Positions 1 through 52,850 of a DNA stretch of 64,000 nt are shown here, piece by piece. The notes beneath the pieces were generated by a model, which was given only the letters and a program-made list of their open reading frames with translations, did no database searches and was not told the origin of the DNA. Each line of letters starts with the position of its first letter. The stretch's first letter is position 1. Made by a program: the position numbers and the translations under genes. Origin of the DNA: an uncultured delta proteobacterium (GTDB taxonomy: Bacteria; Desulfobacterota; Syntrophobacteria; BM002); the NCBI GenBank assembly GCA_963712115.1, contig CAVQGX010000020.1, positions 128,001-192,000 of the forward strand. Reading direction: 5' to 3'.

Positions 1-1664
1 GAAAAATGAGCAATGGCCTCATCGAACCGCCCCTGGCGGGCCAGGCTTACTCCCAGACTGTTATGGGCCTCGGCAAAATTGGCATGCAACTGCACTGCCA
101 TGGTAAAATTGGATGAAGCCTCCTCGTTCTTCCCCTGTCGAATCAGTGTGTTACCCAGGTTAAAATGAGCCTCGGCCAGCTTGGGATCAAGCTGCACGGC
201 TGAGTAATAGTGGTGCATGGCCTCTTGCAGCTTCCCTTGCTGTTCCAATATATTCCCCAGGTTAGTATGTGCTTTCGCCGAGTTGGGCTGGAGTTGGAGT
301 GCCCTGGAATAGTGGAATCTGGCCTTATCAATTTCTCCTTTTCTGATTAGGGCTTTTCCCAGGTTGTTGTGGATCACCTGGTTGTCAGTGGTAACTGCAA
401 GGGTATGTTCGAAAAGGGTAATGCTGTTACGCCAGTGTCTTACCTGGAGCCGGGTGACTATCATAAGGGATACGAGCACTAACGCGGCCGAGGTGAAGAG
501 TACTATCCTTTGATAACGCCATTTTGCCAATAGGCGTGGAAGGCCCCAAGCAATGATGATAAACAGGCCGATGAGGGGGATATAAGTGAAGCGATCAGCC
601 ATGGATTGCTTTCCCACCTGTACTAGCCCTATGACCGGCACCATGGTTCCAAGGTACCAGAGCCAACCTACTGGCAGGTATGGATGGCGCCGCCTGGCAC
701 GGAGCGCCAGGACAGATATCAGCAATAAGAGTAAGCCAGCCCCGACAGCCTGCCAAATTGGCAAAGTATTACCAGGGTGTGGGTAAAAAACCGCTAGGTC
801 TTGCGGCCAAATCATCTTTCTCATATAGCCTATGTAGGCGACCAGTCCGTTGGCAATACGAATCCGTGCTGGCAAAACCTCAACAGAGGCAGCGGCACCG
901 CAGCTTTGTTGAGTGAGAAAGGCAATCAGACTTGCAGCTGCCGCTAAGACAAAAAAAGGTAGCTTTTCCAAGAGCAAGCGGGAGGCCAGCGGGGGTAACT
1001 TGTTTGAACTCATTGATTTTTCAATTTCTGAGCCGATATGATCTTTGAATTGTCCTGGCTGAAATCGGCCGAGTGGCCAATAATCCAAGAGAAGTAGGAC
1101 AAATGGCAGTGTCACCAGCATGGGTTTGGCCATAAGGCCCAGAGCAAAAGTAAAAAGGGCAAGAAAATATTGATAAAGCCTGGGCCGTGCAGCATATTGG
1201 ATATAAAACCACATGGTGAGCATCCAGAAAAAGGTGCTCAAGACATCCTTGCGCTCAGTTACCCAGGCAACTGATTCCACATGCAAGGGATGGAGGGCAA
1301 AGAGGGCAGCAACAAAAGCGCTCCGCCAGAGGGAGCCGGTAATTCGGCTTAAGATGAAGAAAAGCAAGAGAGTATTGGCGAGGTGAAAGAGCAAATTGGT
1401 AAAGTGATATCCGCCTGGGTTTAAACCGTAAAGTTCATAATCCAGCATAAAGGATAGCCAGGTCAACGGCAGCCATAAACCCACATGGTTGTTGGTAAAA
1501 GCCCAAACTACGTTTTCTTTGTTAAAACTAGCCTGAAGTTGGTGATTGTCTGTGATGTACAAATCATCGTCAAAGTAGACAAAATCAAAGGTTCGCACCT
1601 GCCAGAAAACAACGAGGGTGCAAGAGATTAGCAGTAGGGTTGTTAGAAAAAGTTTGACGCGCAT
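1..1664 (-). CDS. TMTC-like GT-C membrane glycosyltransferase with C-terminal TPRs (paralog 1, runs off left edge)
   Basis: Absent from the ORF track. Manual translation from ATG at 1664 is open to base 1: MRVKLFLTTLLLISCTLVVFWQVRTFDFVYFDDDLYI...HPLHVESVAWVTERKDVL...MADRFTYIPL...TPRs (HNNLGKAL, HTNLGNIL, HFNLGNTL). Confidence 0.85.
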   Translation of the reverse strand, partial: MRVKLFLTTLLLISCTLVVFWQVRTFDFVYFDDDLYITDNHQLQASFNKENVVWAFTNNHVGLWLPLTWLSFMLDYELYGLNPGGYHFTNLLFHLANTLLLFFILSRITGSLWRSAFVAALFALHPLHVESVAWVTERKDVLSTFFWMLTMWFYIQYAARPRLYQYFLALFTFALGLMAKPMLVTLPFVLLLLDYWPLGRFQPGQFKDHIGSEIEKSMSSNKLPPLASRLLLEKLPFFVLAAAASLIAFLTQQSCGAAASVEVLPARIRIANGLVAYIGYMRKMIWPQDLAVFYPHPGNTLPIWQAVGAGLLLLLISVLALRARRRHPYLPVGWLWYLGTMVPVIGLVQVGKQSMADRFTYIPLIGLFIIIAWGLPRLLAKWRYQRIVLFTSAALVLVSLMIVTRLQVRHWRNSITLFEHTLAVTTDNQVIHNNLGKALIRKGEIDKARFHYSRALQLQPNSAKAHTNLGNILEQQGKLQEAMHHYYSAVQLDPKLAEAHFNLGNTLIRQGKNEEASSNFTMAVQLHANFAEAHNSLGVSLARQGRFDEAIAHF

Positions 1665-1822
1665 AGGGGCCACTCTATGACTTAAAAAGAAAATCCTCAA
1701 CGAAGCTAACCCTGCAGGAACTTTCCTTTTCATGAACACTAAAGAAAATGGCTAAAATAGCCGTAACTATTAAAATATTTCCACTCCGGGTAATCCTTTT
1801 TATCTCAAAGATTAACAATATT

Positions 1823-1838
1823 AGCAAGAAGCTTGCCA
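1823..1838 (-). promoter_or_regulatory. sigma54 (-24/-12) promoter candidate
   Basis: TGGCAAGCTTCTTGCT (GG-N10-GC) on the minus strand, intergenic, about 160 bp upstream of TMTC-like paralog 1. Confidence 0.65.
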
Positions 1839-2161
1839 GAGAATTGTCCACAATTCTCACGAGAGCGTCCGGCTATGGCCATGGGGCAGAGTGCCAGTTC
1901 ATCGTTTCTTCAAAAAAACAAAGACAGTGACTCTGTTAACCGAAGTCGCTGTGGGGTTACATGGGTGAACATCAGGTTTCACTTCACCCTGGGGATTAGT
2001 CCTCTCTTTAATAGGAAGCGTAATTAACCCACGAGGGTTACCTAAGTTGGAGTAGACCAGAGGGGCAGAATAGCTTTCATTTAGAGGTAAATGGAACAGA
2101 CATGCAAAATGGGAGAGGATAAATTTCTAGAGAAAACTATTTTTTCAATGATAATAGAAAT

Positions 2162-4021
2162 TTAAAACTTGTCAGAAGAATCCCAGAGTTTTGTGTTCAA
2201 AGACAACATCTTATCCCTAGCCTCTAGAAATAGTGCCAAATCCTTTGAGACTTCAGCGGGTTCCAATTTCCATCTATCTTTTATATCAAATATATCTCCT
2301 GTTTTTACGGAAAAATAGGTTGATTGAGTCAGAAGCAGGGTCATTCTAGAAGTCGGTGCTATAATTCTATGACGTTTTAAGAATTTTTTCATACGTGTCT
2401 TCGATTCAGGAGAGATTAACAGATACATAAGATCTAATATATCCTCATGGCAAAAGAGTCCGTTATATATTTTCCCAGCCATTTGCTTATCAGGCAGTAG
2501 GAGAAGTCCCGGTATACGCAATCTCTCTAATATGCCACTTCCTGGGGTCTTTACTGTCATCAATCCTTCGTTATTAGCAGTATCAGATGATATAAAAATA
2601 ACAGGTTGTTTGTCTTGAGGTAATTGCTGCAAGCCGTCCAAAAAAATACTCAAAGAATAATCGACAAATAACATTCCCCCTTCATGATTATGAGGTATTT
2701 TCTTGCCATTTATCTCAGAAGGAAATTCATATGGTTCATGATTACTTAGAGCCTGGATAATGAAAAAAGAGGCTCGATTACTTGCCACACCTTCCTTATA
2801 TTTTCTCAATGCCGTTGAAAATAGAAGGTCATCACTAAAGTCAAAGTGTTTTTTGTAAATGCCAGTGCTTCCTGTCATAAGGCTTCTATTCAGCCCCCAC
2901 TCGCAGCCTGCATCTGCTATGATTTGACCCCAGTTATCCCATTGAGGGTTAGCTGCCGACAACACCACACAATCATAGCCACTTTGCCTTATTTGAGGCA
3001 TACGCCCTACCTTGCCTGCACCGGGATTTCGCAGGATAGCCGGAGTGAAACCCGGGGGATTGCTTATCCCAGTCATTAAACCCCATCTGGCCGCCCAAGT
3101 ACCTTCACCTGCTGCTATATGATTGGTAAAAATCATTCCTTCATTCATATATCTAGTTATTGTGGGCGACAGATTCTTGTGATGAACTGCTCCTTCTCCC
3201 AGGCCGAGGATATCGCTGGCCCTGTGAGATTCCAGCATCACAACAATAACAGAGCGCCCCTGATAACGGCCGGCGACAGGAGCCAACGTTTCATCGGGAC
3301 CATCTGCCCAGAATGGACTTTCTTCCGTCTCCCTAATTTTCCTAGCCACATCAAAGTCAAATTCTCTGGTCTCATCATCTCTGTATGGCTTATGTGCTAT
3401 CGACCAGGGTGAACTGGCCGGTTCATAGTAATAACTGAGCATCCCATGTCGGAAAATAGTAGATTGTGATTCGGCTACCCCCAATATCATGACGGCTGCC
3501 ATCACTTGAATGGTGCAAAAAAATAGGACTTTTGATTTGACATAGTTCTTATATAAAAAGCGCAACCCCAAATATCCTCCAACATACAAAAGAGTAAAAA
3601 TAAGTAACCTTTGGGAAAAGAACAAATCTAACATGTAATCTCTATAACCGGATTCAAAAAAATAAAATTCAATTTCATACCATAGTAAGTTACGGCCTTG
3701 TTCAACGTAAAAGTATGAAGAAGCTATAAACCAGATGGAAAATATCCAGAGAACAGTAATGACAAGCGGCTCAATAATCAATCTTACTTTATTCTCAAAA
3801 AGCATCATAAAGGAAAGCAGCATGAGAGGATAGAAAGTATAACTAGAAATGAGCCACGTATATCCAAGTATTTTGGGAGAGTGTCCAAATGTTTTAATGT
3901 CAACAATTAAAGTGAGCAATAAAATAAGACTCACGAAAGATGATACTTTGTACCACTTTCCTTTTTCCAGGTAATGCAACAAGCTTGATACTTGCTCAAA
4001 TATTATGTGGATACGGCTCAT
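2162..4021 (-). CDS. LtaS/sulfatase-like (alkaline phosphatase superfamily) membrane protein
   Basis: About five N-terminal TM helices, then VIVVMLES metal-ligand motif, NHEPY and FISSD motifs typical of LtaS/phosphoglycerol-transferase-like enzymes. Confidence 0.65.
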   Translation of the reverse strand: MSRIHIIFEQVSSLLHYLEKGKWYKVSSFVSLILLLTLIVDIKTFGHSPKILGYTWLISSYTFYPLMLLSFMMLFENKVRLIIEPLVITVLWIFSIWFIASSYFYVEQGRNLLWYEIEFYFFESGYRDYMLDLFFSQRLLIFTLLYVGGYLGLRFLYKNYVKSKVLFFCTIQVMAAVMILGVAESQSTIFRHGMLSYYYEPASSPWSIAHKPYRDDETREFDFDVARKIRETEESPFWADGPDETLAPVAGRYQGRSVIVVMLESHRASDILGLGEGAVHHKNLSPTITRYMNEGMIFTNHIAAGEGTWAARWGLMTGISNPPGFTPAILRNPGAGKVGRMPQIRQSGYDCVVLSAANPQWDNWGQIIADAGCEWGLNRSLMTGSTGIYKKHFDFSDDLLFSTALRKYKEGVASNRASFFIIQALSNHEPYEFPSEINGKKIPHNHEGGMLFVDYSLSIFLDGLQQLPQDKQPVIFISSDTANNEGLMTVKTPGSGILERLRIPGLLLLPDKQMAGKIYNGLFCHEDILDLMYLLISPESKTRMKKFLKRHRIIAPTSRMTLLLTQSTYFSVKTGDIFDIKDRWKLEPAEVSKDLALFLEARDKMLSLNTKLWDSSDKF

Positions 4022-4120
4022 GGAATTAATATCTCGGTTAACAACCTTTCAGTCCGATTATGGTGGCAGCTACTATGGAGGAAGTCTCTGCCATAATTAT
4101 CCCCTGACTATTGAAACCAC

Positions 4121-4136
4121 AGCAAGCAATGTGCCA
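4121..4136 (-). promoter_or_regulatory. sigma54 promoter candidate
   Basis: TGGCACATTGCTTGCT, 100 bp upstream of the 4021 start. Confidence 0.7.
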
Positions 4137-4339
4137 ATAGGCCACATAGCAAAGGTGCATCTTTAGCGGCCAATTAGTGGGCGAATTTATATGGTTATCC
4201 TAATAGGATATGAAATGTTAAGTGGGAGGTTTCAGTAGGCGGCAAGAGTAGTGTAGCGCTGGTGCGTGAGATAAAACATCTGGTCATGACTGCATTTTTT
4301 CTGCTTATTTACTCGATCCTTTACATTTCTGTATTTTCA

Positions 4340-6084
4340 CTACTCAACCATACGGAATCCCTCCTTTAGTGTGCTTCCGCGCATTTGAAGATCATCCTTA
4401 CTGTGGGGTGCACTAGGTAGATCTGCATCCCAGGCTAATTGTTTGGGGGGAACGTTTAGCAAAAAACCGTCATGGATCTTTACAACCCTCATTTTCACTT
4501 TGGGTAATTGGCGAATAGTGAAGATAGAGTTGGAAGGGCCACCAAGAAGGACCGCGAAACTATCCCATCTGATGCACAGAAGGTTTATCAAGACGACGGA
4601 AACCAATATTAACATTACGCGACTCACGTATCTCACCAACTGGAATTTTGCCTCATTCAGTATGAGATAGACCAAGCTTCCCCAGGCGAGGATGATGTAG
4701 CCCCAGATCCATCCTCTGCCAAATCGTATTGCTGGGGCCGAGAAAAACCAGAAGATGATTCCCAAAAGTAATATTCCTTGAATCACTAGTGTATTCACGC
4801 ATATTCTTAACTTCCTCTTAAAGCAAAAGAAAAAGAAGATAGCTGCCGGGACAAAAGAATAGATCAGCCAGCGATAAATCGGATTCTTACCCCCACGGGT
4901 CGACCAAAATCGGATCCACTCTAAAGTACTCATATCACCAATTGACCAGTCGGTATATCGCACCGTTGGGTGAATGGCAAAGTACCTGATACTCCTTCGC
5001 ACCTTTTCCGCCTGCGCATAAGGTATTTTCCAATCAAAAGAAAAAAGATCAAGTTGAGGAAAGGGAAAAACAAGGTATCCTGAAAGGATGACATTACCCA
5101 CGAGAAAGGGAAACAGGATAAAGAAACTCAATAGCCCACTGAATAGGAGCTTTTTCCATCCTCTATTCTCCTGCCTGGTAAGGATATATAAAGGCAAGAG
5201 AACAACTGGCAGAGAGCTGAGCTTAATGGTAGGTAAAAATAATGAGAGACATATAACGAGAATAAAGCTCTCGTACCGAGAAGGTGTTTGTTTACCATCC
5301 GACGCTAAGTTCTGTTCAATGCAATTTATGGTTAAAATAAATGCATAAACTATGAATATAAACACAATGAGATCAGGAGATAGTGAGGGAATAAACCCGA
5401 TGGATAAATCGCGGTCAACACAGAGTGGAAGAGCTATTAGGCATTTTAATATATTAGTTAATGATAGTTGGCCCTCGAATATATTAATAAAGCCAGAGAA
5501 AGAAATTATCAGCGCAAGAGAATAGGCGATGACATTTACCAAGTGATAACTTTTACCGGCCAAAGACCAAGATGTCAAAGAATGCAGCGAGGTAGAACCA
5601 GGATGAATTAAATGCTAATCTGTGATGGAGGTTGCCGAGACCTGGTACGGTGCCATATTCCTTTATCCACTTAACTGCTTGTGCATGGTACAGTCCTGTA
5701 TCAAATGAAGTTGCGGGACCGGATGCGTAGACAATCGCAGAAAGCAAACAGATGATTCCCAGAATGGATAAATAGGGACTAACCTTGGCTTTCAGAAAGA
5801 CTGAACTTATCTTGGCAAAGAGGTAGTTTCTATCATAGCAGATATAGAGGAACAGTAAGGTTGTGATCCCCAAATGGACATATTCTGTGACGGGTGTGAC
5901 TAGAGCTGTGGATGAGATTACGGTTGTTAGGGTTATGATCCCCAGAATGATAGTATTCGCCAGGTCAGGGGTGGATGAACTATTAGGGAGTAAAGGAAGC
6001 TTTTTCAAATAACCTTCGGGTTAAAGATCCAATAATAAAAAGAAGAATAAGCGCATAGAAAAGGTAGAGGGCGATATAGATCAT
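4340..6084 (-). CDS. polytopic membrane protein, LIC_10190-like / GT-C-like (two apparent frameshifts)
   Basis: ATG at 6084 (MIYIALYLFYALILLFIIGSLTRRLFEK) joins ORFs 5553..6008 and 4340..5578 through indels near 6003 and 5565. Motifs DTGLYHAQAVKWIKEYGTVPGLGNLHHRLAFNSSW, SPD, NVILSGYLVFP, WFFSAPAIRFG. Confidence 0.6.
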
Positions 6085-6107
6085 AAACTTAGGGTATTGT
6101 ACTCTAT

Positions 6108-8762
6108 TTATTTCTCGACCATATCAAATACGCTCTCCAATGCCTCCTTGATTTTTTTAACATGGGGACCTCCACCTTGAGCCATGTCTGGCCGCCCACC
6201 TCCCTTGCCACCTAGCATGGCGGAAAGCTCCTTGATGATTTGGCCGGCATGATACTTGTCGGTAAGATCTTCCGTCACCCCGCAGATAAGCATGGCCTTG
6301 CCATCTGCAGCCTCAGCGCCCAGCACTATCACCCCGGACTTGATTTGACTCTTCAGATTGTCCAGCATCACCCGCAAATCCTTGGCACTGTCAACATTCA
6401 CCTGCTGGGAGAGTACCTTGAGGCCATCGATCTCACGGATATCTTGATTACTGGGGGCGAACTGTCGGCTCATGGCTTGGGCTTTTACCCGCTCTATCTC
6501 TTTTTCCAGCTCTTTCTGCTGGGCCAGCAGTTTTTTCACCCGCCCGGATAAATCCTGGGGTGCAGCTCTGAGTAGCGCGGCCGTTTCTTTCAGAGTTTTT
6601 TCCTGATTCTGAATATACTGGAGGGCGCCAGTACCGGTGAGGGCCTCAATGCGGCGGATGCCAGCAGCCACAGAGCTCTCACCGACGATTTTGAAAGGAC
6701 CAATGTCACCGGTGTGGTGGCTGTGGGTCCCACCGCAGAGCTCTCTGGAATAATCACCAATAGAAACCATGCGCACTTCATCACCGTACTTTTCGCCGAA
6801 AAGGGCCATGGCTCCTTCGGTGATAGCGGTATCCATATCGGTTACTTGATCGGTGAGATCTTCGTTCTGCAGGATACGTTCGGTGACCAGCTTTTCGATG
6901 AAGGCAATCTGTTCAGAGGTAAGTGCTTCACCGTGGGAAAAATCGAAGCGAAAGTAGTCCGGCCCTACGTAAGAGCCCTGCTGTTTTACGTGGTCCCCCA
7001 GGATGTTCCTGAGCACGTATTGGAGTATGTGGGTTGCGGTATGGTTCCGTTCGGTGGCCTTGCGTTTTTCCTTGTCTACGGCCAGGGTAACCTCTTCTCC
7101 AACTCTAACTGTTCCCTGTAAGACTTGACAAACATGGACGAGCAAATCACCGGGTGTTCTTTGGGTGTTTCGAACTTCCAGAGTAAAACCCATGCCACTG
7201 ATGCGCCCTGTGTCCCCCACTTGACCACCGGCTTCGCCATAAAAGGGAGTTTGCTCGCAAACCACTTCAACCCTTTGGCCTTCGCTGGCCTCGTTGACTG
7301 CACCATCATCGGTGAGCAAAGCCAGAATCACTGACTGATCCTCTGTTCTGTCGTAACCAGTGAAAGTGGTGGTTACCCCCTGGGCTGCAAGTTGCTTGAG
7401 GGCCTCAGAGGTTTCCATGATACCGGAAATCTTGAAGGCGGCCCGGGAACGCTGCCGCTGTTCCTCCATAAACTGGTCAAATCCGACCTCATCTACCTCA
7501 AAGTCCTGATCTCGAGCCAGGTCCATGACAATGTCGATGGGAAAACCGTAGGTGTCGTAGAGCTTGAAGATGGTCTCGCCGGGAAAGACATCTCTTTTGG
7601 CCTTTTTTAGTTTTTCAACCTCTTCTTGGAGTTTGCCCAAACCCCGGTCAAGGGTGGCTGAGAAGGACTTCTCCTCGTTTTTCAGGGCCATTTGGATGTA
7701 GCTCTTGTTCTTAGCGATATCCGGGTAGGTGTCCGCCATGGCACCAATTACGCCTTCCGCCACCTGGTGCATAAAGGGTTTCTCGATGCCTAGGAGTCTG
7801 CCGTGCCGTACTGCCCTACGAATGACTCGCCGCAAAACGTAGCCACGGCCCTCGTTGCTGGGCATGACACCATCACTGATGAGAAAAGTGGCGGCACGGC
7901 CATGATCGGCGATAACCTTGATGGATACGTCCTTTTCTTCATCCTTACCGTGGGCGTGGCCGCTGAGCTCTTCGATGACGGAGATGAGCTCCTGGAAAAT
8001 GTCGATGTCGTAGTTGGAAGGCACCTTCTGGAGCACGGCGGCAATTCGTTCAAGGCCCGCACCGGTGTCAATAGAAGGGGCGGGAAGAGGCTCCATGGTG
8101 GAGTCTTCTTTGCGATTGAACTGCATGAACACTAGGTTCCACAATTCCAGGAAACGGTCGCAGTCGCATACACCGGGAGCACAGTCCGGTCCGCAAGCCA
8201 TGTGGTCTCCCTGATCGATCAATATCTCGGAGCAGGGACCGCAGGGACCGGTGTCCCCCATGGCCCAGAAATTCTCACTGGTTGGCAAAGTGAGGATTCT
8301 CTCTCGTGGAAGGTATTTGTTCCACTCTTCCAGTGCTTCTTTATCTACGCCCAGCCCCATTTCTTCGTCGCCTTCGTGCACCGAAGCGTAGAGTTTGTCT
8401 TTGGGAAGATTAAGGTGATCGGTGAAAAATTCCCAGCCGAAACGGATGGCTTCCTTCTTGAAATAGTCGCCGAAAGAAAAGTTACCTAACATCTCGAAAA
8501 AAGTGTGGTGCCGGGCAGTACGGCCCACGTTGCGCAAATCATTGTGTTTGCCCCCGGCTCGCATACACTTCTGACAGGAAGTGGCCCGCACATAATCCCT
8601 CTTTTCTTCACCTAAAAGTGGTCGCTTGAACTGGACCATGCCTGCGGTGGTAAAAAGCAGGGTGGGATCGTCATGGGGTACCAGGGAGGAACTCTTTACA
8701 ATCCTATGCTCATTCATTTTGAAGTATTCAAGAAATGCCTTTCTCAGCTCAGCAGTCTTCAT
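6108..8762 (-). CDS. alaS: alanine--tRNA ligase
   Basis: [46 protein letters not shown] editing motifs, [15 protein letters not shown]. Confidence 0.98.
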
Positions 8763-9793
8763 TCTTCTGTGGTCTCCTCATCACCGTTGTCTTTTATTTT
8801 CAGCCCGTACGATTTTCTGACCTTCCGTTCAATCTTAGAGCAAATGTCGGGATGCTCCTTTAGAAAAGCCTTGACATTTTCTCGGCCCTGTCCCATGCGT
8901 TCTCCCCCATAGGAGTACCAGGCGCCGCTTTTATCAACTATGTTAAGGGCTGTGGCCATGTCCAAAACGTCTCCTTCTTTGGAGATTCCCTGACCGTACA
9001 TGATGTCGAACTCAGCCTCTTTAAAGGGAGGTGCCAACTTGTTCTTAACCACTTTAACCCGGGTTCTGCTGCCAATGACCTCTTGGCCGTCCTTAATGGC
9101 GCTAATCCGCCGGATATCCAAGCGTACGGAGGAGTAGAACTTGAGAGCATTGCCACCCGTGGTGGTCTCAGGGTTGCCGAAAAGCACCCCCAGTTTCATC
9201 CTTATCTGGTTAATAAACATCACTGTGGTCCGAGACTTACTTATGGCAGCGGTAAGTTTGCGCAATGCCTGAGACATGAGGCGAGCTTGCAGTCCCATGT
9301 GGGCGTCGCCCATTTCTCCTTCGATTTCCGCCCGAGGCACCAGGGCAGCCACTGAATCAATTACCACTACGTCAATGGCTCCGCTACGCACCAGGACCTC
9401 TGTGATCTCCAGAGCCTGTTCGCCAGTGTCGGGCTGGGAGATGAGCAGATCATCCACGTTGACCCCCAGTTTTCGGGCGTACGCAAGATCGAGGGCATGT
9501 TCTGCGTCAATAAAGGCAGCCAGTCCTCCACCTCTTTGGGCTTCGGCAAGAACTTGGAGGGCCAGGGTGGTCTTACCCGACGATTCCGGACCAAAAATCT
9601 CCACTACCCTGCCCCGGGGCACTCCGCCGAGACCCAAAGCAACATCCAAAGAGAGGGAGCCGCTTGGAATCACCGGGATATCGGCAAACGTTGCGTCGCT
9701 GCCGAGGCGCATGATGGCTCCCTTACCAAATTGTCTTTCAATCTGGCTCATGGCCAGATCGACAGCCTGTTGTTTTTCCTTTGTAGTGGACAT
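8759..9793 (-). CDS. recA: recombinase RecA
   Basis: GPESSGKTT Walker [27 protein letters not shown] at 9793 preferred over TTG at 9823. Confidence 0.98.
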
Positions 9794-9878
9794 AGTCTTT
9801 TCCTTTTTCCCAGATTCGGGCAATAATTGTTCAGCTTTACCGGAGCCAAAAACAGTCTAGCTGCTAGTTGGATGCGGA

Positions 9879-10454
9879 TTAAGGTGGTGCCGGTGCGGCA
9901 AGAGGCATACGGTGCAGTTTCGTGTAGATCGCCCCGGTTGGCCTAAGGTCACTTTTATACAATATTATTTCATCCGCGTCAAAAGAATTGAACTCCGGTA
10001 ATTCCAGGGTTGACATAGCGTCGATCAACGCTTGAAGCCGGTGACGGTCCTTGACCCGGCCAATAGTTAGATGCGGACGGAACCCCCGCCCTTCCCGGGC
10101 AAAGCCCAATGGCTCCAGCGCCTTTTCAAGACCAGCTTGGATCTTTGCCAGTCGCTCAACCTCGCCCTGAAGTCCCACCCAGATCACCCGGGGCTTACGA
10201 TTGCTGGGAAAGCCTCCCAAACCGGCTGCACAAAGAGTGATAGGGGGCTCATCTCTAACCAACTGCGCTACAGCTGCAGCAATATCGTCCACCTGGGCAG
10301 GGAGGATATTACCCAAGAATTTAAGGGTCAGGTGAATGCCAGCCGGTTTCACCCAGCGCACACCGGCCCGGCTCTGTTTGAGTTGCTCTTGAATGGCAGC
10401 CAGCTTTTCTCTGGTCTCCTGGGGAAAATCAATTGCGATGAAGGATCGGATCAT
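9879..10454 (-). CDS. thpR: RNA 2',3'-cyclic phosphodiesterase (2H family, LigT)
   Basis: Two HxT motifs (HLTLKFLG, PHLTIGR), MIRSFIAI N-terminus, position upstream of recA. Confidence 0.93.
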   Translation of the reverse strand: MIRSFIAIDFPQETREKLAAIQEQLKQSRAGVRWVKPAGIHLTLKFLGNILPAQVDDIAAAVAQLVRDEPPITLCAAGLGGFPSNRKPRVIWVGLQGEVERLAKIQAGLEKALEPLGFAREGRGFRPHLTIGRVKDRHRLQALIDAMSTLELPEFNSFDADEIILYKSDLRPTGAIYTKLHRMPLAAPAPP

Positions 10455-10719
10455 AGGGTATTTTTTCTAAGGGGATCTCCCCTTCTCAATGTCCGCTTCT
10501 ATGAAACTTTTAACCTACCACCGACAGCCAAGTCACGGTTTCAATATATCCGCAACAGCATCAACGATCTAGTGATTTTATTCAGATGGGCGTGCAGAAC
10601 TCAATGCAGTAATTTAGACTGTTAAATATTTTTTTAAGCAGACAAATCAAATAGTTACAACAATATGTTTTGGATAGTTACCCCCAAGAAATTCTGAGTA
10701 AAAGTGTGCTTATGCCCTA

Positions 10720-10811
10720 GATTCCCGCTTTCGCGGGAATGACGACAGTATGCGATCACCCGTCATCCTGGTCCCGCATCAAGTGCGGGATAGACTGCGG
10801 CGGGGATCCAG
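10720..10811. repeat. REP-like palindromic composite, copy 1
   Basis: GATTCCCGCTTTCGCGGGAATGAC hairpin plus CTGGTCCCGCATCAAGTGCGGGATA (10768-10792), identical to 46414-46438. Confidence 0.7.
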
Positions 10812-10856
10812 GTAGGTTATAGTTTCAAGGACCAGAGGGCAAAGAAGTGGTAGGAT

Positions 10857-12630
10857 CTAGTTGGATTTACCTGCTTCTTGGAGAGCAAGTTCTAAATTAG
10901 AACGTGCTTGTGCATAGCTTGGCTTTAACCGCACGGCTTCACGAAAATGGACAATAGCCTCATCTAGCTTACCTTGGCGCGCCAGGGCAACTCCCAGGCT
11001 GTTATACCCCTCGGCAAAGTCCGGCCTGATCTGCAGTGCCGTAGCGAAATGAATTCTTGCCTCTTCGATCTTTCCCTGCCGTAGTAGAGCATTTCCTAGG
11101 TTGAAGTGCGTCTCTGAAAGGTTGGGATCTCTGTGCAAGGACTCGTAAAAATGGTCTATTGCTTTTTCAAGCTTTCCTTGCTGCTGCAAAATGTTTCCAA
11201 GGTTATTATGTGCCACTGCAGATCTAGGGTTGAGTTGGAGCGCCCTAGAGAAATGTTTTTCAGCCTCCTCGATATTTCCCTGCTCGGCGAGTGCTTCACC
11301 GAGATTGATATGAGCTAGATAATTGTTGGCATTCACTTCAACTGCCTTTTTGAAGAGTGTAATATTGTTGCGCCAGCTAGCTACTTGCAAATGTGTACAT
11401 ATCATCAATGCGGCAATAACTATCCCTGCGGCTGTAGCAGAGACAAAATATTGAAAGCGTAACTTGATCAGAAGGTTTGGCACACCCCAGGCAATGATGA
11501 TGAAAAGGCCGATCAACGGTATGTAGGTAAAACGGTCGGCCATTGCCTGCATTCCCACCTGCACTAGCCCTATGACCGGTATAAGAGTTCCCAAGTACCA
11601 TAGCCATCCCACCGGAAGATATGGATGCCGCCGCCCTGCCCGGATCACCCAAAAAGTTACAAAGAATAAGAGTAAACCGGACGCGAAAGCTTGCCATACT
11701 GGGAGGTTAAGGCCAGGGTGTGGATAAAAGGCGGACAAACGATGAGGCCACATCATCTTAACCATGTAGCGGACATAGGAAATGAATGCGTTAGCGACAC
11801 GTATATGCATTGGCAGACTGTCCAATGGGAGCCCACCTCCTGCGGATTGCTGCGAGAATAAAGCCACTACACTAAAAGCGGCCGCGAGGGCAAAGAAAGG
11901 AAGTTTTTCCCAAACAAGGCGAAGGGACTGTGACTTCGCTTTCACGAAATCGATAGACGCCTGTGAAACGTGGCCATGGTCGCCACCCAGCTGTTTAAGC
12001 TGAATGCGTCCCAGAGGCCAGTAGTCCAAGCAGGAGAAGCACAAAGGGTAGAGTTACCAACATGGGCTTGGCCATGAGGCCCACGGCGAAAGCGAATAAT
12101 CCGAGCAGGTACCAGGTGAGTCCTGCGATGGGTAGTAAAATGACCGTAACCCCAAATTGTCAACATCCAAAAAAATGTGCTTAAAACATCTTTACGTTCA
12201 GTCACCCAGGCAACCGACTCAACATGCAATGGATGCAGGGCAAATAGAGCGGCAACAAAAGCGCTCTGCCACCGAGCCGCCGGTCGTCCTCCTAAGAATC
12301 AAAAAAAGCAACAGCGTATTGGCAATGTGAAATAGTAAGTTTGTCAGATGATAGCCACCCTGATTCAAACCGTAGAGTTCAAAGTCCAGCATAAATGATA
12401 GCCATGTCAGTGGGATCCAGAAGCCCAGCAGTGGAAGCTGGTAAAGGCCCAGACGAACGCTTTCGCGGCTCAGACCGTCCTGAACATGTGGAATTCTCAG
12501 TTACATAGAGCGGATCATCAAGATTGACAAAATTGTGATGCCGCACCTGCCAAAAGACAGCAAGCGTAGCTGTGATCAGGAGTACACAGACGAGATAGTC
12601 AAGGTTGAGAGGGAAAGATTTTTTCTCCAT
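10857..12630 (-). CDS. TMTC-like GT-C/TPR protein (paralog 2, several frameshifts)
   Basis: Pieces 12379..12648, 11942..12229 and 10857..12044 are collinear with paralogs 1 and 3 (FVNLDDPLYV, HVESVAWVTERKDVL, MADRFTYIP, TPRs). Indels cluster at 12040-12500; sequencing error or decay. Confidence 0.75.
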
Positions 12631-12644
12631 GACATTACTGCTTT

Positions 12645-14510: not shown

Positions 14511-14512
14511 GT

Positions 14513-15268
14513 CTAGTCCTTCTCCGCTGGAAACAGCTTTGTTTGGATGAGTTTCATCTTGGCCAATCGAAAAGACAGCGCGGTTAAAAGGCAACCGAAG
14601 CCGTATTTGACGCTCCGTAGGAAGTTAATGGATGAGGCTTCGGCAAAATACTTGGTTGGACAAGTGACTTCGGCTATGGTGTGACCAAACCAGATAATCT
14701 GCGCCAACATTTGATTATCAAAAACAAAATCGTCCGAGTTTAACTCGAGTGGGAGTTGTTCCAAGAGTTCCCGAGAAAATGCCCTGTAGCCCGTGTGGTA
14801 CTCAGATAGTTTGGCGCCCATCAAAATGTTCTCCACAAGTGTGAGAAACCGATTCGCTAGGTATTTCCAAATTGGCATGCCACCTCTTAAAGCATATCCG
14901 CCGAGAATTCTTGAACCCAACACGCAGGGGTACAGATTATTACCAATTATGGAAACCATCGCGGGGATAAGCTTTGGAGTGTATTGATAGTCCGGGTGGA
15001 CCATGATGATAATATCACCACCCTGATCCAGGGCCAGTTTGTAGCATGTCTTCTGGTTGGCTCCGTAGCCTAGATTTTGTGGATGAACATGGATTATGGT
15101 ATTGGCGAGGTTCTTCGCGACAGCTACGGTTTCGTCTTTACTGCCGTCGTCCACCACAATCACCAGATCAACAACGTCCTGTTCCATCACCTCATCGTAG
15201 GTCTTCTGCAGGGTTTGGGCAGCGTTGTAGGCTGGCATTACCACGATAACTTTTTTGTTTTTAAACAT
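14513..15268 (-). CDS. GT2 glycosyltransferase, DPM1/polyprenol-phosphate glycosyltransferase-like
   Basis: VVMPAYN, VVDDGSKD, NLGYG, HPDYQY, GSR, EYHTGYRAF. Confidence 0.9.
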   Translation of the reverse strand: MFKNKKVIVVMPAYNAAQTLQKTYDEVMEQDVVDLVIVVDDGSKDETVAVAKNLANTIIHVHPQNLGYGANQKTCYKLALDQGGDIIIMVHPDYQYTPKLIPAMVSIIGNNLYPCVLGSRILGGYALRGGMPIWKYLANRFLTLVENILMGAKLSEYHTGYRAFSRELLEQLPLELNSDDFVFDNQMLAQIIWFGHTIAEVTCPTKYFAEASSINFLRSVKYGFGCLLTALSFRLAKMKLIQTKLFPAEKD

Positions 15269-15294
15269 CTCTTTTCCTCGAAACCAGTAAAACG

Positions 15295-15310
15295 AGCAAA
15301 ATCAATGCCA
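15295..15310 (-). promoter_or_regulatory. sigma54 promoter candidate for the GT2-TMTC unit
   Basis: TGGCATTGATTTTGCT about 27 bp upstream of ATG 15268, followed by a GAGGA RBS. Confidence 0.7.
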
Positions 15311-15568
15311 CCTAACCGCCAAAGTGCAAGGTGTCCCGTCAGCCTCGGCAGGAGAAGCAAGCTTCTTTAGTACTTGAGGTCAGGGTTAAGCCTTGCTTCA
15401 CTCTCATAGGGAGGAGGAGAAACCATATAGTTGATGCTTGATTTCCAAAGGCGAGTGTACCATACTTTCGTCAATGCTGTGGGATCCACTATAAGACATT
15501 TAGGCATGCAGTGAACATTCTCCGATTCTGGTATTATTCAGTACACCATGACTTATTTTTGCTTCTAA

Positions 15569-15584
15569 TGGCACATCAATTGCT
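15569..15584 (+). promoter_or_regulatory. sigma54 promoter candidate for rmlBACD
   Basis: TGGCACATCAATTGCT about 110 bp upstream of rmlB, divergent from the 15295 site. Confidence 0.72.
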
Positions 15585-15692
15585 TGAGAAGAAAATTTAT
15601 AACCTAATAGCGTTATCCGGCGGGCTATGCAAGTTCGTTGATTGCTAATTTATAGAAAACATTCAAGCAAAAAAATCTAATCAAGCAACATT

Positions 15693-16769
15693 ATGCGCTC
15701 GAAGACCATACTGGTTACCGGCGGTGCCGGATTTATTGGAACAAACTTCATCCGCCACATCCTTGCGACGCGGCCAGACTACCGTATTGTCAATCTGGAT
15801 GCCCTGACCTACGCGGGCAACCTCGCCAATTTTCAAGACTTCTCCACTAGCCTAGCGAATAGGCATCGTTTCATCCATGGAGATATAAGGGACAAAAGCC
15901 TCCTCGCTCGCCTCTTCGCCGAGGAGAGCTTGGACATGGTGGTGCACTTCGCGGCGGAATCCCATGTGGATCGATCAATCCTAGGACCTGAGGCTTTTTT
16001 GCAGACAAACGTGGAGGGAACCTTTCGCCTCATCGAGGCGAGCCTCAAAGTTTGGGAGAAAAAAGGCAGGCCGGAAAGTTTTCGTTTTTTGCATATATCT
16101 ACAGATGAGGTTTACGGAAGCCTGGGGCCGGAGGGATATTTCACCGAGAGCACACCCTATGATCCTTCCAGTCCCTATTCGGCCTCCAAGGCTGCCTCGG
16201 ACCACTTTGTCAGGGCCTATTTTCGCACTTACGGCCTTCCCACCATAATCACTAATTGCTCCAATAACTTCGGCCCTTATCAGTTTCCTGAAAAGCTAAT
16301 TCCCCTGATGATTTTGAACATCATGGAAGAAAAGGTTCTGCCGGTCTACGGAGACGGCAAGCATGTCCGAGACTGGCTTTATGTCATAGACCACTGTGAT
16401 GGGCTTGTAAGGGTTCTCGAAGAGGGACGGCCAGGGGAAACTTACAACATAGGGGGAGGAGCCGAGCGACAAAACATTGATGTTGTCCACTTGCTCTGTC
16501 ATCTTCTCGATGTCCGGCTGGACAGATCCGGCCGGAAAGCCAGCCGGAACCTCATCCAGTTTGTCACTGACCGACCTGGACACGACCGGCGCTACGCTAT
16601 TGACGCTAATAAAATCAGGGGTGAGCTGGGGTGGAGCCCCGCCCATAAATTTGAGGAGGCGCTTGAGGCTACGGTGGATTGGTATTTGGCCAATATGGAC
16701 TGGGTGGAGATGGTTCGCAGTGGGGAATACCGCAAGTGGATTGAGATCAACTATGACAAACGGGGATGA
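15693..16769 (+). CDS. rmlB: dTDP-glucose 4,6-dehydratase
   Basis: GGAGFIG, HFAAESHVDRSI, ISTDEVYG, YSASK, DRPGHDRRYAID. Confidence 0.96.
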   Translation: MRSKTILVTGGAGFIGTNFIRHILATRPDYRIVNLDALTYAGNLANFQDFSTSLANRHRFIHGDIRDKSLLARLFAEESLDMVVHFAAESHVDRSILGPEAFLQTNVEGTFRLIEASLKVWEKKGRPESFRFLHISTDEVYGSLGPEGYFTESTPYDPSSPYSASKAASDHFVRAYFRTYGLPTIITNCSNNFGPYQFPEKLIPLMILNIMEEKVLPVYGDGKHVRDWLYVIDHCDGLVRVLEEGRPGETYNIGGGAERQNIDVVHLLCHLLDVRLDRSGRKASRNLIQFVTDRPGHDRRYAIDANKIRGELGWSPAHKFEEALEATVDWYLANMDWVEMVRSGEYRKWIEINYDKRG

Positions 16770-16824
16770 TTTTCTGCGGAGCTGGGTTGAAGCAAAGAGA
16801 GCACAAGGCAGAGTGGCTGCTATC

Positions 16825-16983
16825 AAATTCGAAATCCTAAATCCGAAGCAAGAAACAAATCCAAATTTCGAATTCTCCAATGTTCAAAACAGAATCGACT
16901 AAATCTATGAATTGCATGTTTTGGTCATTTGGATTTTGAAAATTTGAATTTGTTTGGGATTTCGATATTCGGATTTCGGATTT
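16825..16983. repeat. 7-nt-period inverted repeat (long hairpin)
   Basis: AAATTCGAAATCCTAAATCCG...TCCAATGTTCAAAAC left arm, GTTTTGGTCATTTGG...GATTTCGGATTT right arm; related copy at 35948-36076. Confidence 0.7.
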
Positions 16984-17034
16984 GTTCGATACTGTCTTCC
17001 TTTCACTCAAATACTTCTGGAGAGAGAAGAGACA

Positions 17035-17916
17035 ATGAAGGGTATCATACTGGCTGGTGGTTCAGGAACTCGACTTTATCCCATTACCAGGGTGGTGAGC
17101 AAGCAACTCCTGCCGGTATATGACAAGCCCATGGTGTACTACCCCCTCTCGGTCCTCATGTTGGCAAAAATCCGTGAGATCCTGATAATTTCCACTCCAC
17201 AAGACTTGCCCCTTTTCCGAGAGCTTTTAGGAGATGGGTCGCAATGGGGCCTTTCATTTGCATATGCTGAACAGCCACGGCCTGAAGGGATCGCCCAGGC
17301 GTTTATCATAGGCCGCGATTTTGTGGGCAGTGACAGGGTTTGCCTCATACTTGGGGACAATATTTTCTATGGGCACGGTCTCCCAGACAAATTGCGCAAT
17401 GCAGTATCTCAGGAGAAAAGGGCAACCATTTTCGGCTACTGGGTCAAGAACCCGCAGCGTTACGGCGTTGTTACCTTCGATGCACAAGGCCGGGCCATGG
17501 ATATTGTGGAAAAACCGCAGGAACCCAAGTCTAATTGGGCGGTTACTGGGCTCTACTTCTACGACAACCGGGTTTTGGATATAGCTGCCGAGCTCAAACC
17601 TTCGGCCCGTGGCGAGCTGGAGATTACCGATGTAAACTCAGCCTACCTCAGAATGAAAGCGCTGCGGGTGGAGAAACTGGGCCGAGGAATCGCCTGGCTG
17701 GATACCGGCACACCTGAGACTCTCATGCAGGCAGCCAATTTCATCGAAACTATAGAGGAGAGGCAGGGCTTGAAGATTGCCTGCGTTGAAGAGATTGCCT
17801 ATCGTATGGGTTATATAAGCAAAGACCAATTGGAGAAACTTGCCCGGCCGCTCATCAAAAATGGTTATGGTCAGTATCTTATGGCTATACTACGGTATGA
17901 AGAATTCTTACCTTAA
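17035..17916 (+). CDS. rmlA: glucose-1-phosphate thymidylyltransferase
   Basis: [43 protein letters not shown]; true start ATG 17035. Confidence 0.97.
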
Positions 17917-18049
17917 CCCGGATATTTCATGAATTCACGGCCTGGCGTGACTGCGACCACGGAGTCAAAGCTATCAGCACTCAGAAGCTAGCGGTCAGCA
18001 AAAACAATAGCAAAACAATTTCTTTCCCTTTAAAGAAGAGCCGTTTAAA

Positions 18050-18613
18050 TTGAAAGTGTTACCCACCGAATTGGATGGAGTCTATATTGTTGAGCCGCAG
18101 GTTTTCTATGACGATCGTGGCTTTTTCTTGGAGACCTACCACCAAAGAAGATACGCTGAGACTGGAATCAACTGCAATTTCGTTCAGGACAACCTCTCGC
18201 GTTCGGTGCGTGGTACGCTCAGGGGCCTCCACTATCAACTGGAGTGCGCACAGGCAAAATTAATTCAGGTAATTAAAGGTGTTGTTTTTGACTTGGTGGT
18301 GGACATCCGCCGCGGTTCTCCTAGTTTTGGACAGTGGGTTGGAGTCAATCTCTCAGAGGAAAACAAGCGCCAGTTATTTGTGCCGGAAGGATTTGCCCAC
18401 GGCTTTTGCGTACTTAGCGAAGCGGCAGACGTTGTCTACAAGTGCACCGATTTTTATGCCCCTGAGGATGAGGGAGGTATTCTCTGGTCCGACCCGGATC
18501 TCGCCATCGATTGGCCCATTTCAGAACCACTGATTTCGGCCAAGGACAGTCGGCTTCCTCGCCTGGCCGATGTTCCCCCCGAGCGATTGCCCCTTTACAA
18601 GGAAAGTAGATGA
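18050..18613 (+). CDS. rmlC: dTDP-4-dehydrorhamnose 3,5-epimerase
   Basis: DDRGFFLE, QDN, LRGLHYQ, GFAHGF. Confidence 0.96.
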   Translation: MKVLPTELDGVYIVEPQVFYDDRGFFLETYHQRRYAETGINCNFVQDNLSRSVRGTLRGLHYQLECAQAKLIQVIKGVVFDLVVDIRRGSPSFGQWVGVNLSEENKRQLFVPEGFAHGFCVLSEAADVVYKCTDFYAPEDEGGILWSDPDLAIDWPISEPLISAKDSRLPRLADVPPERLPLYKESR

Positions 18614-19524
18614 AAGTTCTGGTTACCGGCGCTCATGGCCAGGTGGGATGGGAACTATCAAGGCGCGGTGCAGGAAAGGGTTCTGACATCCTGGCCTTAG
18701 ACCGTGCAACCCTCGATATTACGGATCAGAGTGCGGTTAAGCGGACGGTAGGGAGATCCGGCGTTGCCCTGGTAGTCAATGGGGCAGCATACACAGCCGT
18801 TGATCAAGCGGAATCCGAATCGGAACTGGCCTTTGCCGCCAACCGCGACGGTCCGGCCAATCTGGCCTCTGCCTGTGCTGAGGCCGGAATTCCCCTGATC
18901 CATATCTCCACAGACTTTGTCTTTGACGGTGAGAAGAAAGGGCCCTACCTCGAGACGGATCAGGTCTCACCTCTTAGTGTTTACGGAAAAAGTAAAGCTG
19001 CAGGAGAGGTGGCGGTGAGGGAACGTCTGCGGGAGCACATCATCCTTCGTACTTCCTGGGTTTATGGTGTGCACGGCCGCAACTTTGTCAAGACCATGCT
19101 GAGATTGGGCCGTGAAAAAGATGTTATCCAAGTGGTTGCGGATCAGTATGGCTGTCCGACCTATGCAGCAGATCTTGCGGATACAATACTGAAAATCGCT
19201 GCCCAAATTCAGGATAACAGGCAGATTACCTGGGGGACCTATCATTATTGCGGCAAGGGGGTGACGAGTTGGCATGGCTTAGGGGAAGAGACTTTGTCTC
19301 TGGCAAAAAAATATATCTCACTCAGGGTAAAAACAATAGAGGCTATAAGGACAGCTGAATATCCGACACCGGCAAAGAGGCCCTTTAATTCAGCCCTGGA
19401 TTGCTCCTTAGTTGAAAAGACCTTTAGCATCCATCCCAAGCCGTGGCGAGAAAGTCTTGCCCAAATGATCAAAATGATGTTTTCAGTCGAAAAATCGAAT
19501 AACTCGCAGAAGGTCATGACTTAG
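18610..19524 (+). CDS. rmlD: dTDP-4-dehydrorhamnose reductase
   Basis: GAHGQVG, AAYTAVDQAE, ISTDFVFDG, YGKSK, PTPAKRP. Confidence 0.95.
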   Translation: MKVLVTGAHGQVGWELSRRGAGKGSDILALDRATLDITDQSAVKRTVGRSGVALVVNGAAYTAVDQAESESELAFAANRDGPANLASACAEAGIPLIHISTDFVFDGEKKGPYLETDQVSPLSVYGKSKAAGEVAVRERLREHIILRTSWVYGVHGRNFVKTMLRLGREKDVIQVVADQYGCPTYAADLADTILKIAAQIQDNRQITWGTYHYCGKGVTSWHGLGEETLSLAKKYISLRVKTIEAIRTAEYPTPAKRPFNSALDCSLVEKTFSIHPKPWRESLAQMIKMMFSVEKSNNSQKVMT

Positions 19525-19648
19525 ACGGCACTGTAAAAAGCTCCAGATGCAAGGCGCACAAATCTTTAGGAATGAGGCGTACTTGCAGTACGCTGCAATG
19601 ACTAAAGATGAAGTGCAACGCCGCAGATGGACTTTTTACTAAGCCGTT
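19524..19648. mobile_element. about 125-bp MITE-like element
   Basis: Imperfect terminal inverted repeats GACGGCACTGTAAAAAG...CTTTTTACTAAGCCGTT with internal dyad symmetry; fills the gap between two convergent genes. Confidence 0.6.
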
Positions 19649-20333
19649 AGTCGAAAAATCGAAACCATAAAATAGCAAAAACGGCCTTTACCCCGTCTTT
19701 CCAACCAATCTTCTTGCCTTCTGCGTAAGTCCTGCCACTGTAGCTTATGGGAGTCTCATAGATGCGAAAACCCTTCTTGGCTATTTTTGCGGTAAACTCG
19801 GGTTCGAAGCCGAAACGTTTTGATCTCAGCTTGATTTCAGCGAGCACCTCGCTTTTGAAGACCTTGTAGCAGGTTTCCATGTCGGTGAGATTCAGGTTGG
19901 TCAGCATGTTGGAAAGCAAGGTCACGAACTTGTTGCCCAGATAGTGCCAAAAGAAAAGGACCCGGTGAGGACCACCAAGAAACCTCGAGCCGTATACCAC
20001 ATCGGCTCTGCCGTCGACGATGGGCCCCAGAAGGAGAGGATACTCTCTGGGATCATACTCGAGATCTGCATCCTGAATAATCACTATATCACCGGTTATA
20101 GCTTGAAAGCCTGTTCTCAGGGCGGCACCCTTGCCTTGATTGTGGTCATGGTAGAGTACCTTTACATTTTCATTAGCTTGGTTAATCTCTCGCAGGTGCT
20201 CCCGTGTGCCATCCGTGGAATAGTCATCCACTATAATAATCTCTTTCTCTAATTCAACTTCTTGGACGCGGGCGACAATTTCCTTGATTGTCTGAACTTC
20301 ATTGTAAACAGGCATTACCACTGAGATCTTCAT
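19647..20333 (-). CDS. GT2 glycosyltransferase, DPM1-like
   Basis: [60 protein letters not shown]. Confidence 0.92.
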
Positions 20334-52843: not shown

Positions 52844-52850
52844 TTAAAGA

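Follow-up and report, generated by a model that had tools for sequence, protein, structure and literature searches.

Near the start of a 64,000-nucleotide stretch of contig CAVQGX010000020.1 from an uncultured delta proteobacterium (G000:C20:128001-192000; hereafter, the window) lie genes for three related membrane proteins, P1, P2 and P3, in which a putative glycosyltransferase domain of the GT-C type precedes a tail of tetratricopeptide repeats (TPR), together with a gene for a family 2 glycosyltransferase, the first GT2, which directly precedes P3. All four genes are on the minus strand. P1 (3-1739) is intact, and its C-terminal end lies beyond the window start; the full frame comprises 616-620 residues and ends at G000:C20:127889. 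P3 (12645-14594) is also intact, with 649 residues counted from the first TTG, and its true start is probably the CTG just past the stop codon of the first GT2 gene (14513-15268; 251 residues; PF00535, E 3.2e-23). P2 (10857-12648) is a broken paralog as assembled. The genome, 4.9 Mb in 70 contigs, has a completeness of 94.4% and a contamination of 6%, and the nearest named relatives of the window proteins come from metagenome-assembled genomes (MAGs) labelled Syntrophobacteria, Desulfobacterales or 'Deltaproteobacteria'. An initial annotation of this DNA had described three paralogs of a TMTC-like protein glycosylation pathway. All of the motifs that it quoted (FDDD/LDDP/LDDG, W-x-PLT, HPLHVESVAW..RKD and ADR-x-TY) and the TPR tails were found in the translations, but P2 is not intact.

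P1 and P3 share 58% identity, and PMT_2 (PF13231), a family of the GT-C clan, is their sole Pfam match apart from the TPR families. In the Pfam scan, P1 scored 28.6-29.2 bits against PMT_2, for which the curated cut-off is 26.1; P3 scored 25.1 bits as a whole protein, just below that cut-off, and 26.8 bits when its N-terminal 450 residues were scanned. TPR families match P1 at E 1e-32, and the TPR matches in the paralogs go down to E 1e-48. A PMT_2 match at E<=1 was found in 42 of 55 aligned relatives, the best of them at 2.2e-9. The top clusters in the ESM atlas were bacterial PMT_2 (0.97-0.98), and a cluster of the eukaryotic family TMTC_DUF1736 ranked 18th (0.92).

Residue conservation was read from an 80-sequence alignment of the N-terminal domain drawn from at least eight phyla. 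In P3 numbering, D62, H155, P156, K169, K210, D224, E263, K264 and Y391 are invariant in all 80 relatives, at least 90% of which also retain D63 and R388. The acidic pair D62-D63 is positioned 10-12 residues past the first hydrophobic helix (residues 36-52). Judged from the hydropathy of the alignment and the charges of the loops, the domain of P3 would have eleven hydrophobic helices, its N-terminus lying on the inner and the TPR tail on the outer side of the membrane. One could envision that these proteins are no longer enzymes and that they serve as polytopic membrane anchors for periplasmic TPR scaffolds, in the way that PIG-U is an inactive relative of GT-C enzymes. Inactive GT-C relatives are noted in PMC7801869, and the literature that we found contains no demonstration of activity for a bacterial member. 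Yet 90-100% of the 80 diverged sequences retain the acidic pair of loop 1, the Lys and Glu/Asp positions and the Arg ahead of helix 10, and the pairing with a donor synthase, described below, is conserved; we therefore regard loss of catalysis as very improbable.

The family is large. When the N-terminal 450 residues of P3 were used in an exhaustive HMMER search, 75,017 cluster representatives were recovered at E<=0.001, of which 18,930 passed E<=1e-30, and a word-indexed search returned at least 8,000 relatives at E<=0.001. In the databases these relatives bear the name 'PilF', 'Flp pilus assembly protein TadD' or 'tetratricopeptide repeat protein', so the catalytic domain usually goes unannotated. 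Species-representative genomes contributed at least 662 relatives, which come from Thermodesulfobacteriota, Planctomycetota, Verrucomicrobiota, Acidobacteriota, Nitrospinota, Nitrospirota, Chlorobiota and Hydrogenedentota. Within the genus of the window, matches were present in 14 of 17 genomes, at one to nine per genome, and outside the genus but in the same class, matches were found in 3 of 23 genomes. The genome examined here carries about eight GT-C+TPR copies and one distant copy. Three of its other paralogs sit outside any glycan locus. Two of the copies have regulatory neighbours: a paralog at G000:C30 (locus L004, 7463-10533) is directly followed by two PilZ-domain proteins, and a copy at G000:C18 (locus L005) comes after a sensor kinase and sigma-54 regulator pair.

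Gene neighbourhoods were compared across 74 loci (823 genes) around relatives of P3. The only widely recurring gene was the GT-C+TPR family itself, with 141 genes in 73 loci; 48 loci held one copy, 13 held two, 7 held three, 3 held four and 3 held five. DPM1-like GT2 genes were second in recurrence (8 loci by clustering, 11 by phmmer), and the remaining recurrent clusters were housekeeping genes common to related genomes. A GT2 gene was adjacent and co-oriented in five loci, and in three of these it was a near-identical ortholog of the first GT2 that overlapped the start of the GT-C gene as in the window.

The first GT2 has no hydrophobic helix or transmembrane segment, and its closest solved relative is the Pyrococcus dolichol-phosphate-mannose synthase 5mlz (E 6.1e-9). 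The end of its gene overlaps the start of the P3 frame: the TAG stop codon is preceded by GGAGAAGGA, and a CTG in the P3 frame follows right after it, an arrangement that suggests translational coupling of the two genes. The initial annotation had counted two DPM1-like GT2 genes, and a second one is indeed present at 19647-20381 (minus strand; 244 residues; PF00535, E 2.6e-37). It likewise is closest to 5mlz among solved structures (E 1.2e-20), followed by ArnC (1.5e-17) and GtrB (1.2e-12), and it too has no hydrophobic helix. The first GT2 reads MVHPDYQY where the second has DAD (QDADLEYD), and this stretch is conserved enough in the orthologs for a pattern search.

In a reverse test, we took the best 80 of at least 594 relatives of the first GT2, which are 64-79% identical to it and come from nine or more phyla, and examined 5 kb of neighbourhood; the best 80 of at least 601 relatives of the second GT2 served as the control. 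A GT-C+TPR gene was located within 5 kb of the first-GT2 orthologs in 27 of the 80 loci, as compared with 2 of 80 for the second GT2, which indicates that the first GT2 is the dedicated partner of the GT-C protein and the second a bystander. The GT-C+TPR gene was directly downstream in 14 loci and directly upstream in 4 (same strand), and in one locus it formed a single open frame with the GT2. It was the commonest neighbour cluster of the first-GT2 orthologs, ahead of a histidine kinase (11 loci), PMT_2 proteins without TPRs (10 and 3), galE (7) and a YfhO-like GT-C (3). In the genome examined here, three of the nine DPM1-like GT2 genes directly adjoin a GT-C+TPR gene. The route put forward in the initial annotation, from a DPM1-like GT2 through a polyprenol-phosphate monosaccharide to a GT-C protein with TPRs, is thus supported for the first GT2 and is not borne out for the second, which is probably an independent lipid-sugar synthase.

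A possible natural fusion of transferase and donor synthase was seen at locus L203 (1996-4619) of a 'Proteobacteria' MAG, where a GT-C+TPR match and a first-GT2 ortholog share a single open frame.

The GT2-linked GT-C genes do not form one orthologous clade. In a FastTree of 143 N-terminal domains, GT-C+TPR sequences grouped by lineage, and the GT2-linked labels were scattered, with 11 label changes against a mean of 11.2 in 500 shuffles, 267 of which were as low; this possibility was therefore ruled out. The scatter fits a single donor synthase serving all of the paralogs of a genome.

On balance, we lean towards the view that P3, and by likeness P1, is an inner-membrane GT-C enzyme of a bacterial PMT_2+TPR family that is fed by the first GT2 and that acts on what is probably Ser or Thr of proteins. 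Built on gene content, motif conservation, the match to PMT_2 and the recurrent GT2/GT-C pairing, the scheme would run as follows. At the cytoplasmic face, the soluble first GT2 would take a monosaccharide from a nucleotide sugar and attach it to polyprenol phosphate, and the lipid-sugar would then be flipped across the membrane, for which one candidate flippase is a PF03706 protein encoded in the P1 operon. The GT-C domain, with its Asp-Asp in the first outward loop and its Arg before the tenth helix, would transfer the sugar in the periplasm, and the TPR tail may hold or select the acceptor. By analogy with animal TMTC1-4, the O-mannosyltransferases that act on cadherins in the endoplasmic reticulum (CAZy GT105), and with TfpW, a pilin glycosyltransferase of Pseudomonas aeruginosa, the acceptor would most likely be Ser/Thr of proteins in the periplasm or at the cell surface. 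Comparative genomics gives good support to the part of this scheme that concerns enzyme and donor. Two points favour a protein acceptor: the TPR-bearing GT-Cs of known function, TMTC and TfpW, act on proteins, and most members of the family lie outside glycan loci.

Several observations weigh against this proposal. The PMT_2 scores of the window proteins are borderline, sitting at the curated threshold. Comparisons with solved structures gave little: phmmer with the N-terminal domain returned two chance matches only (E about 1), and the family profile had no match among PDB sequences at E<=10. An hhalign comparison with the single Escherichia coli ArnT sequence gave a probability of 0.5%, and one with an 18-sequence ArnT alignment, from which loci L101 (stop codons) and L144 were left out, was weak, with a probability of 23.6% and E 8.6e-4 over 120 columns (columns 84-211). 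The Pfam family TMTC_DUF1736 (PF08409) matched neither the N-terminal parts of P1 and P3 nor anything in the whole genome at E<=10, and the label 'TMTC-type' of the initial annotation cannot be kept in its strict sense; we have filed P1 and P3 as PMT_2-type GT-C enzymes that would work like TMTC and that lie outside the Pfam-defined TMTC family. Just 5 of the 74 GT-C loci carry an adjacent co-oriented GT2, and in 53 of the 80 first-GT2 ortholog loci the 5-kb neighbourhood lacks a GT-C+TPR gene. There is no flippase gene (GtrA, ArnE/F, MATE or similar) in the window, and across the 74 and 80 loci no candidate acceptor gene recurs beside the GT2/GT-C pair. Finally, the polysaccharide-type island around P1, P2 and P3 fits a glycan acceptor equally well.

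This last point leads to the same enzymology with a different target, in which GT2, flippase and GT-C decorate an O-antigen, an exopolysaccharide or lipid A/core after its assembly. Parallels would be GtrABC, ArnC/ArnT and the pentofuranose system of Kelly et al., and the role of the TPR tail would then be to dock onto the export machinery or to bind the polymer. We consider this possible, though clearly short of an even chance. The setting of P1 speaks for it. P1 belongs to a same-strand operon in which it is followed, beyond the window start, by an ArnC-like GT2 (404 residues), a GT4, the PF03706 flippase-like protein and a 730-residue GT-C+TPR protein. The best NCBIfam match of this GT2 is ArnC, and it has C-terminal helices; the flippase-like protein, which is encoded between the GT4 and GT-C+TPR genes, matches PF03706 at E 1.6e-18 and TIGR00374 at E 1.6e-10, the latter under the cut-off, and was found in none of the 74 GT-C loci and none of the 80 first-GT2 loci. 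This operon is the last unit of an upstream glycan island of roughly 24 kb (G000:C20:104001-128000; loci L001 and L002), which holds three further GT-C+TPR relatives. Among its genes are those for a distant 822-residue TPR relative, an HpnJ-like B12-radical-SAM enzyme, GT2 and GT4 enzymes (one GT4 gene being split) and a phosphodiesterase; a GT-C+TPR gene, itself split, comes after that for a DPM1-like GT2. At 17-19 kb upstream of the window start lies the gene for a TagH/Wzt-like ABC ATPase (E 2.6e-58), and next to it one for a permease that resembles Wzm weakly (NF050109, E 1.5e-5, well below the cut-off). Taken together, the island measures roughly 45 kb and includes the TagH/Wzt-like ABC ATPase, four GT4 genes, GT2 genes, the phosphodiesterase gene and rmlBACD. 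First-GT2 orthologs, moreover, also adjoin the TPR-less PMT_2 and YfhO-type GT-C genes mentioned above, and GT-C enzymes that modify lipopolysaccharide (LPS) in this way are described in a PNAS commentary (PMC11194591).

Against a glycan acceptor, proteins are the substrates of both GT-Cs with TPRs that have been characterised, TMTC and TfpW, and most members of the family, single in 48 of the 74 loci and in tandem in the rest, lie among unrelated housekeeping genes; three other paralogs of this genome likewise have no glycan locus around them. The statement in the initial annotation that the window has no wzx, wzy, wzm or WaaL gene holds for the scanned open reading frames (ORFs), with the TagH/Wzt-like ATPase located upstream on the same contig: matches to Wzx, Wzy/WaaL and ABC-2 permease were absent from the window, and whole-genome matches to PF04932, PF01943 and PF01061 (Wzy_C, Wzx and ABC-2) were on other contigs only (C31, C37, C39 and C40).

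The sugar donor that the initial annotation had suggested is rhamnose, and the rmlBACD operon that it reported is present on the plus strand (15693-19524), divergent from the GT2-P3-P2 operon and 425 bp away from it. It consists of rmlB (15693-16769; PF16363, E 9e-88), rmlA (16954-17916; PF00483, E 5e-75), rmlC (18050-18613; PF00908, E 7.5e-73) and rmlD (18610-19524; PF04321, E 1e-109). All four enzyme families are intact (E 9e-88 to 1e-109), and the genome has no other complete rmlA/C/D set. The second GT2 gene is convergent on rmlD, 123 bp past it and upstream of nadD and cinA. This layout is what would recommend the idea that dTDP-L-rhamnose from the rml operon is loaded onto polyprenol phosphate by a GT2 and moved to proteins by the three paralogs. 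The distribution of the rml genes elsewhere argues against it. RmlA, RmlC and RmlD were each found in none of the 74 GT-C loci; in the 80 first-GT2 ortholog loci they were found in 1, 0 and 1, respectively, and in the 80 second-GT2 ortholog loci in 1, 2 and 1. Since these counts are near zero, a rhamnose donor is unsupported, and other polysaccharide loci of the genome (on C31, C37, C39 and C40) could consume the rhamnose. The only sugar-nucleotide gene that recurs near the GT2/GT-C pair elsewhere is instead galE, in the 7 of 80 first-GT2 loci and in 5 of the 74 GT-C loci; its cluster representatives score 446 and 459 bits, compared with a GalE equivalog cut-off of 262. We think that the rhamnose route is very unlikely. 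The sugar is probably not rhamnose, the rml operon is a neighbour by circumstance, and the recurrence of galE gives a weak hint that the sugar may derive from a UDP-hexose or UDP-N-acetylhexosamine (UDP-HexNAc).

Other neighbours in the first 20 kb can also be set apart from the GT2/GT-C pair. A membrane-anchored protein of the sulfatase/alkaline-phosphatase superfamily is encoded at 2162-4021 (minus strand; PF00884, E 4.5e-10), with PF00884 at residues 258-522 and about four N-terminal hydrophobic segments at residues 23-185; its sole PDB match is 3lxq (E 7.4e-7), and the local GC content is 0.40. The name 'LtaS-like' given to it agrees with this architecture, PF00884 plus N-terminal helices, but the protein is not a conserved partner. 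It is followed by a polytopic LIC_10190/DUF8201 membrane protein in two overlapping ORFs (5553-6008 and 4340-5578, minus strand), which match NCBIfam NF047510 at E 6e-34 (profile positions 29-162) and 9.7e-46 (165-422) and score 0.99 in the atlas to DUF8201 clusters. The two ORFs cover successive parts of NF047510, and thus the gene is split (near 5560-5578). This protein had been listed as another GT-C-like membrane protein; it has no Pfam match, and hence no match to a GT-C family, even at E<=5, which leaves that label unsupported. The LtaS-like gene and the DUF8201 gene were each absent from all 74 GT-C loci and all 80 first-GT2 loci. The neighbourhood comparison places them, with the rml operon and the second GT2, as neighbours in a variable surface-glycan island and not as conserved parts of the system. 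The GC content is 0.40-0.42 in the 2-6 kb stretch and about 0.50 elsewhere. The sugar genes of the window are interrupted by 4.3 kb of housekeeping genes, alaS (6108-8762), recA (8759-9823) and a gene for a LigT-type phosphoesterase (9879-10454); a nadD-like gene and cinA come after the second GT2. The intergenic gaps around the genes from P1 to the second GT2 are 425 bp or less.

The state of P2 deserves separate consideration. Four frame changes, near 12490, 12275, 12113 and 12040, break up its N-terminal 220 residues, and only its C-terminal 395-residue frame is open. A tblastn search with P1 and P3 recovered P2 residues 31-70, 72-135, 138-189, 191-219 and 220 to the end in alternating frames, and the homology match across the gene contains two TGA and two TAA codons. 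The frame changes lie in the catalytic N-terminal part, and there are no long homopolymers at the sites. Public reads were consulted over P2: the best runs contain 0.21-0.26 of the sampled words, and four runs yielded short fragments, mostly from relatives or paralogs. No near-identical read-derived fragment from these four runs spanned a frameshift site, which is no evidence either way. An intact close P2 ortholog was not found in 20 relatives, in which the best DNA matches were 66-71% identical, no nearer than the paralogs of the same genome; with no close ortholog among the relatives, the state of P2 rests on this assembly. A further broken frame is found in rnfD (37327-38336, minus strand), which is split into 37680-38336 and 37327-37866 in an otherwise intact rnf operon (about 33-40 kb). 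This split may be an assembly indel, and single frameshifts such as that in the DUF8201 gene may accordingly be assembly errors. Four changes within 460 bp far exceed the background indel rate, though local misassembly among paralogs may have produced them. As assembled, P2 is non-functional.

Two further features of the window were recorded. A molybdopterin oxidoreductase like the formate dehydrogenase alpha subunit (27779-29824, minus strand) has a single in-frame stop, in HCARL*HSS, and is otherwise open over 682 codons; we take this stop to be at the usual place of selenocysteine. A type IV pilus set occupies 46797-64000 and comprises two PilX_N proteins, an N_methyl pilin-like protein, a PilY1-like protein of 1193 residues and a PilB/MshE-like ATPase, beside which are encoded two large proteins (1133 and 734 residues) with no Pfam match.

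Among known systems, the pairing of a GT2 polyprenol-phosphate-sugar synthase gene with a GT-C gene next to it is shared with GtrA/GtrB/GtrC, ArnC/ArnE-F/ArnT and CsbB/GtcA/YfhO. Those three-component systems differ in that their GT-Cs modify LPS, lipid A or teichoic acid, and the window has no gene for a GtrA, ArnEF or MATE flippase. The characterised glycan- or lipid-modifying GT-Cs of the GtrC, ArnT and YfhO type are not known to carry a TPR tail.

What is known of protein O-glycosylation in bacteria comes mainly from oligosaccharyltransferases of the PglL/PilO type and from actinobacterial Pmt. In the latter case, as described in PMC5882110 and PMC12331936, the polyprenol-phosphate-mannose synthase Ppm1 feeds a GT-C protein O-glycosyltransferase. 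Pmt differs from P1 and P3 in belonging to Pfam PMT (GT39), in lacking a TPR tail and in being single-copy; the Pfam scans of the window proteins gave no PF02366 match.

TfpW is closer in architecture. According to bioRxiv 10.1101/2020.04.19.049825, this GT-C D-arabinofuranosyl transferase of group IV pilin strains of P. aeruginosa has about 646 residues, 11 predicted helices, a DDX motif and a periplasmic C-terminal TPR, with ArnT as its best template, and it is needed for pilin glycosylation from a lipid-linked sugar. P1 and P3 would share this plan of a bacterial GT-C with a periplasmic TPR, a comparison made on the architecture as described in that source. The tfpW gene is directly downstream of pilA, whereas here the pilus genes (52-64 kb) are more than 30 kb from the GT-C genes (0-14.6 kb), with alaS, recA, the rnf operon and regulators in between; because of this distance, pilin was set aside as the acceptor at this locus. 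Our search of the literature, which covered few subscription journals, found no functional study of bacterial PMT_2+TPR proteins other than TfpW.

The likeness to TMTC1-4 extends from the predicted overall plan, an N-terminal polytopic GT-C domain followed by a TPR tail on the non-cytoplasmic side, with a donor made by a DPM1-type GT2, to individual motifs. According to PMC7801869, the first luminal loop of TMTC carries two conserved motifs, DD and SHKSYRP; loops 2 and 3 contribute an acidic residue together with a Lys, AERV places its Arg before helix 10, and DW lies in the DUF1736 loop. Four of these five have apparent counterparts in P3, namely D62-D63, W94-H95-P96, E160 or D170 with K210, and A386-D387-R388, matched by eye from the motif list rather than from a sequence alignment. 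On this comparison, the two groups would have in common an aromatic-basic-Pro sequence of the first outward loop, a Lys that follows helix 5 and A-[ED]-R ahead of helix 10. The helix-3 segment of TMTC3, as quoted in the same source, and the P3 segment around HPLHV also have a common pattern, LFA-x-HP-x-H. In the loop between helices 7 and 8, TMTC has the DW motif, whereas the bacterial family has a conserved K-M-x-W-P. The bacterial system further differs in being periplasmic, with up to nine matches per genome in close relatives and up to five tandem genes per locus.

Viewed against these systems, the window brings no new kind of system: the existence of TMTC homologues 'even among prokaryotes' is already in print (PMC7801869), and a bacterial GT-C+TPR protein glycosyltransferase, TfpW, has been characterised. 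What is particular to the locus is the one decayed copy, the coupled and clean two-gene unit of the first GT2 and P3, and the incidental rml neighbour. It also supplies a useful negative, in that neither the rhamnose genes nor the second GT2 belongs to the conserved unit, and the same holds for the neighbouring LtaS-like and DUF8201 genes. If the family does glycosylate proteins, a large blind spot would be exposed, with tens of thousands of members in Planctomycetota, Verrucomicrobiota, Acidobacteriota, Desulfobacterota and other phyla. We would go further only tentatively, and regard what follows as the less likely outcome: a GT2 and a TMTC-like GT-C+TPR protein could form the core of a widespread bacterial periplasmic protein O-glycosylation, in which one donor, possibly a galE-dependent hexose or HexNAc, would be used by several paralogs (P1, P3 and at least four more) whose divergent TPRs pick the clients. 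Such a system might be the prokaryotic counterpart, perhaps even the forerunner, of DPM1-TMTC.

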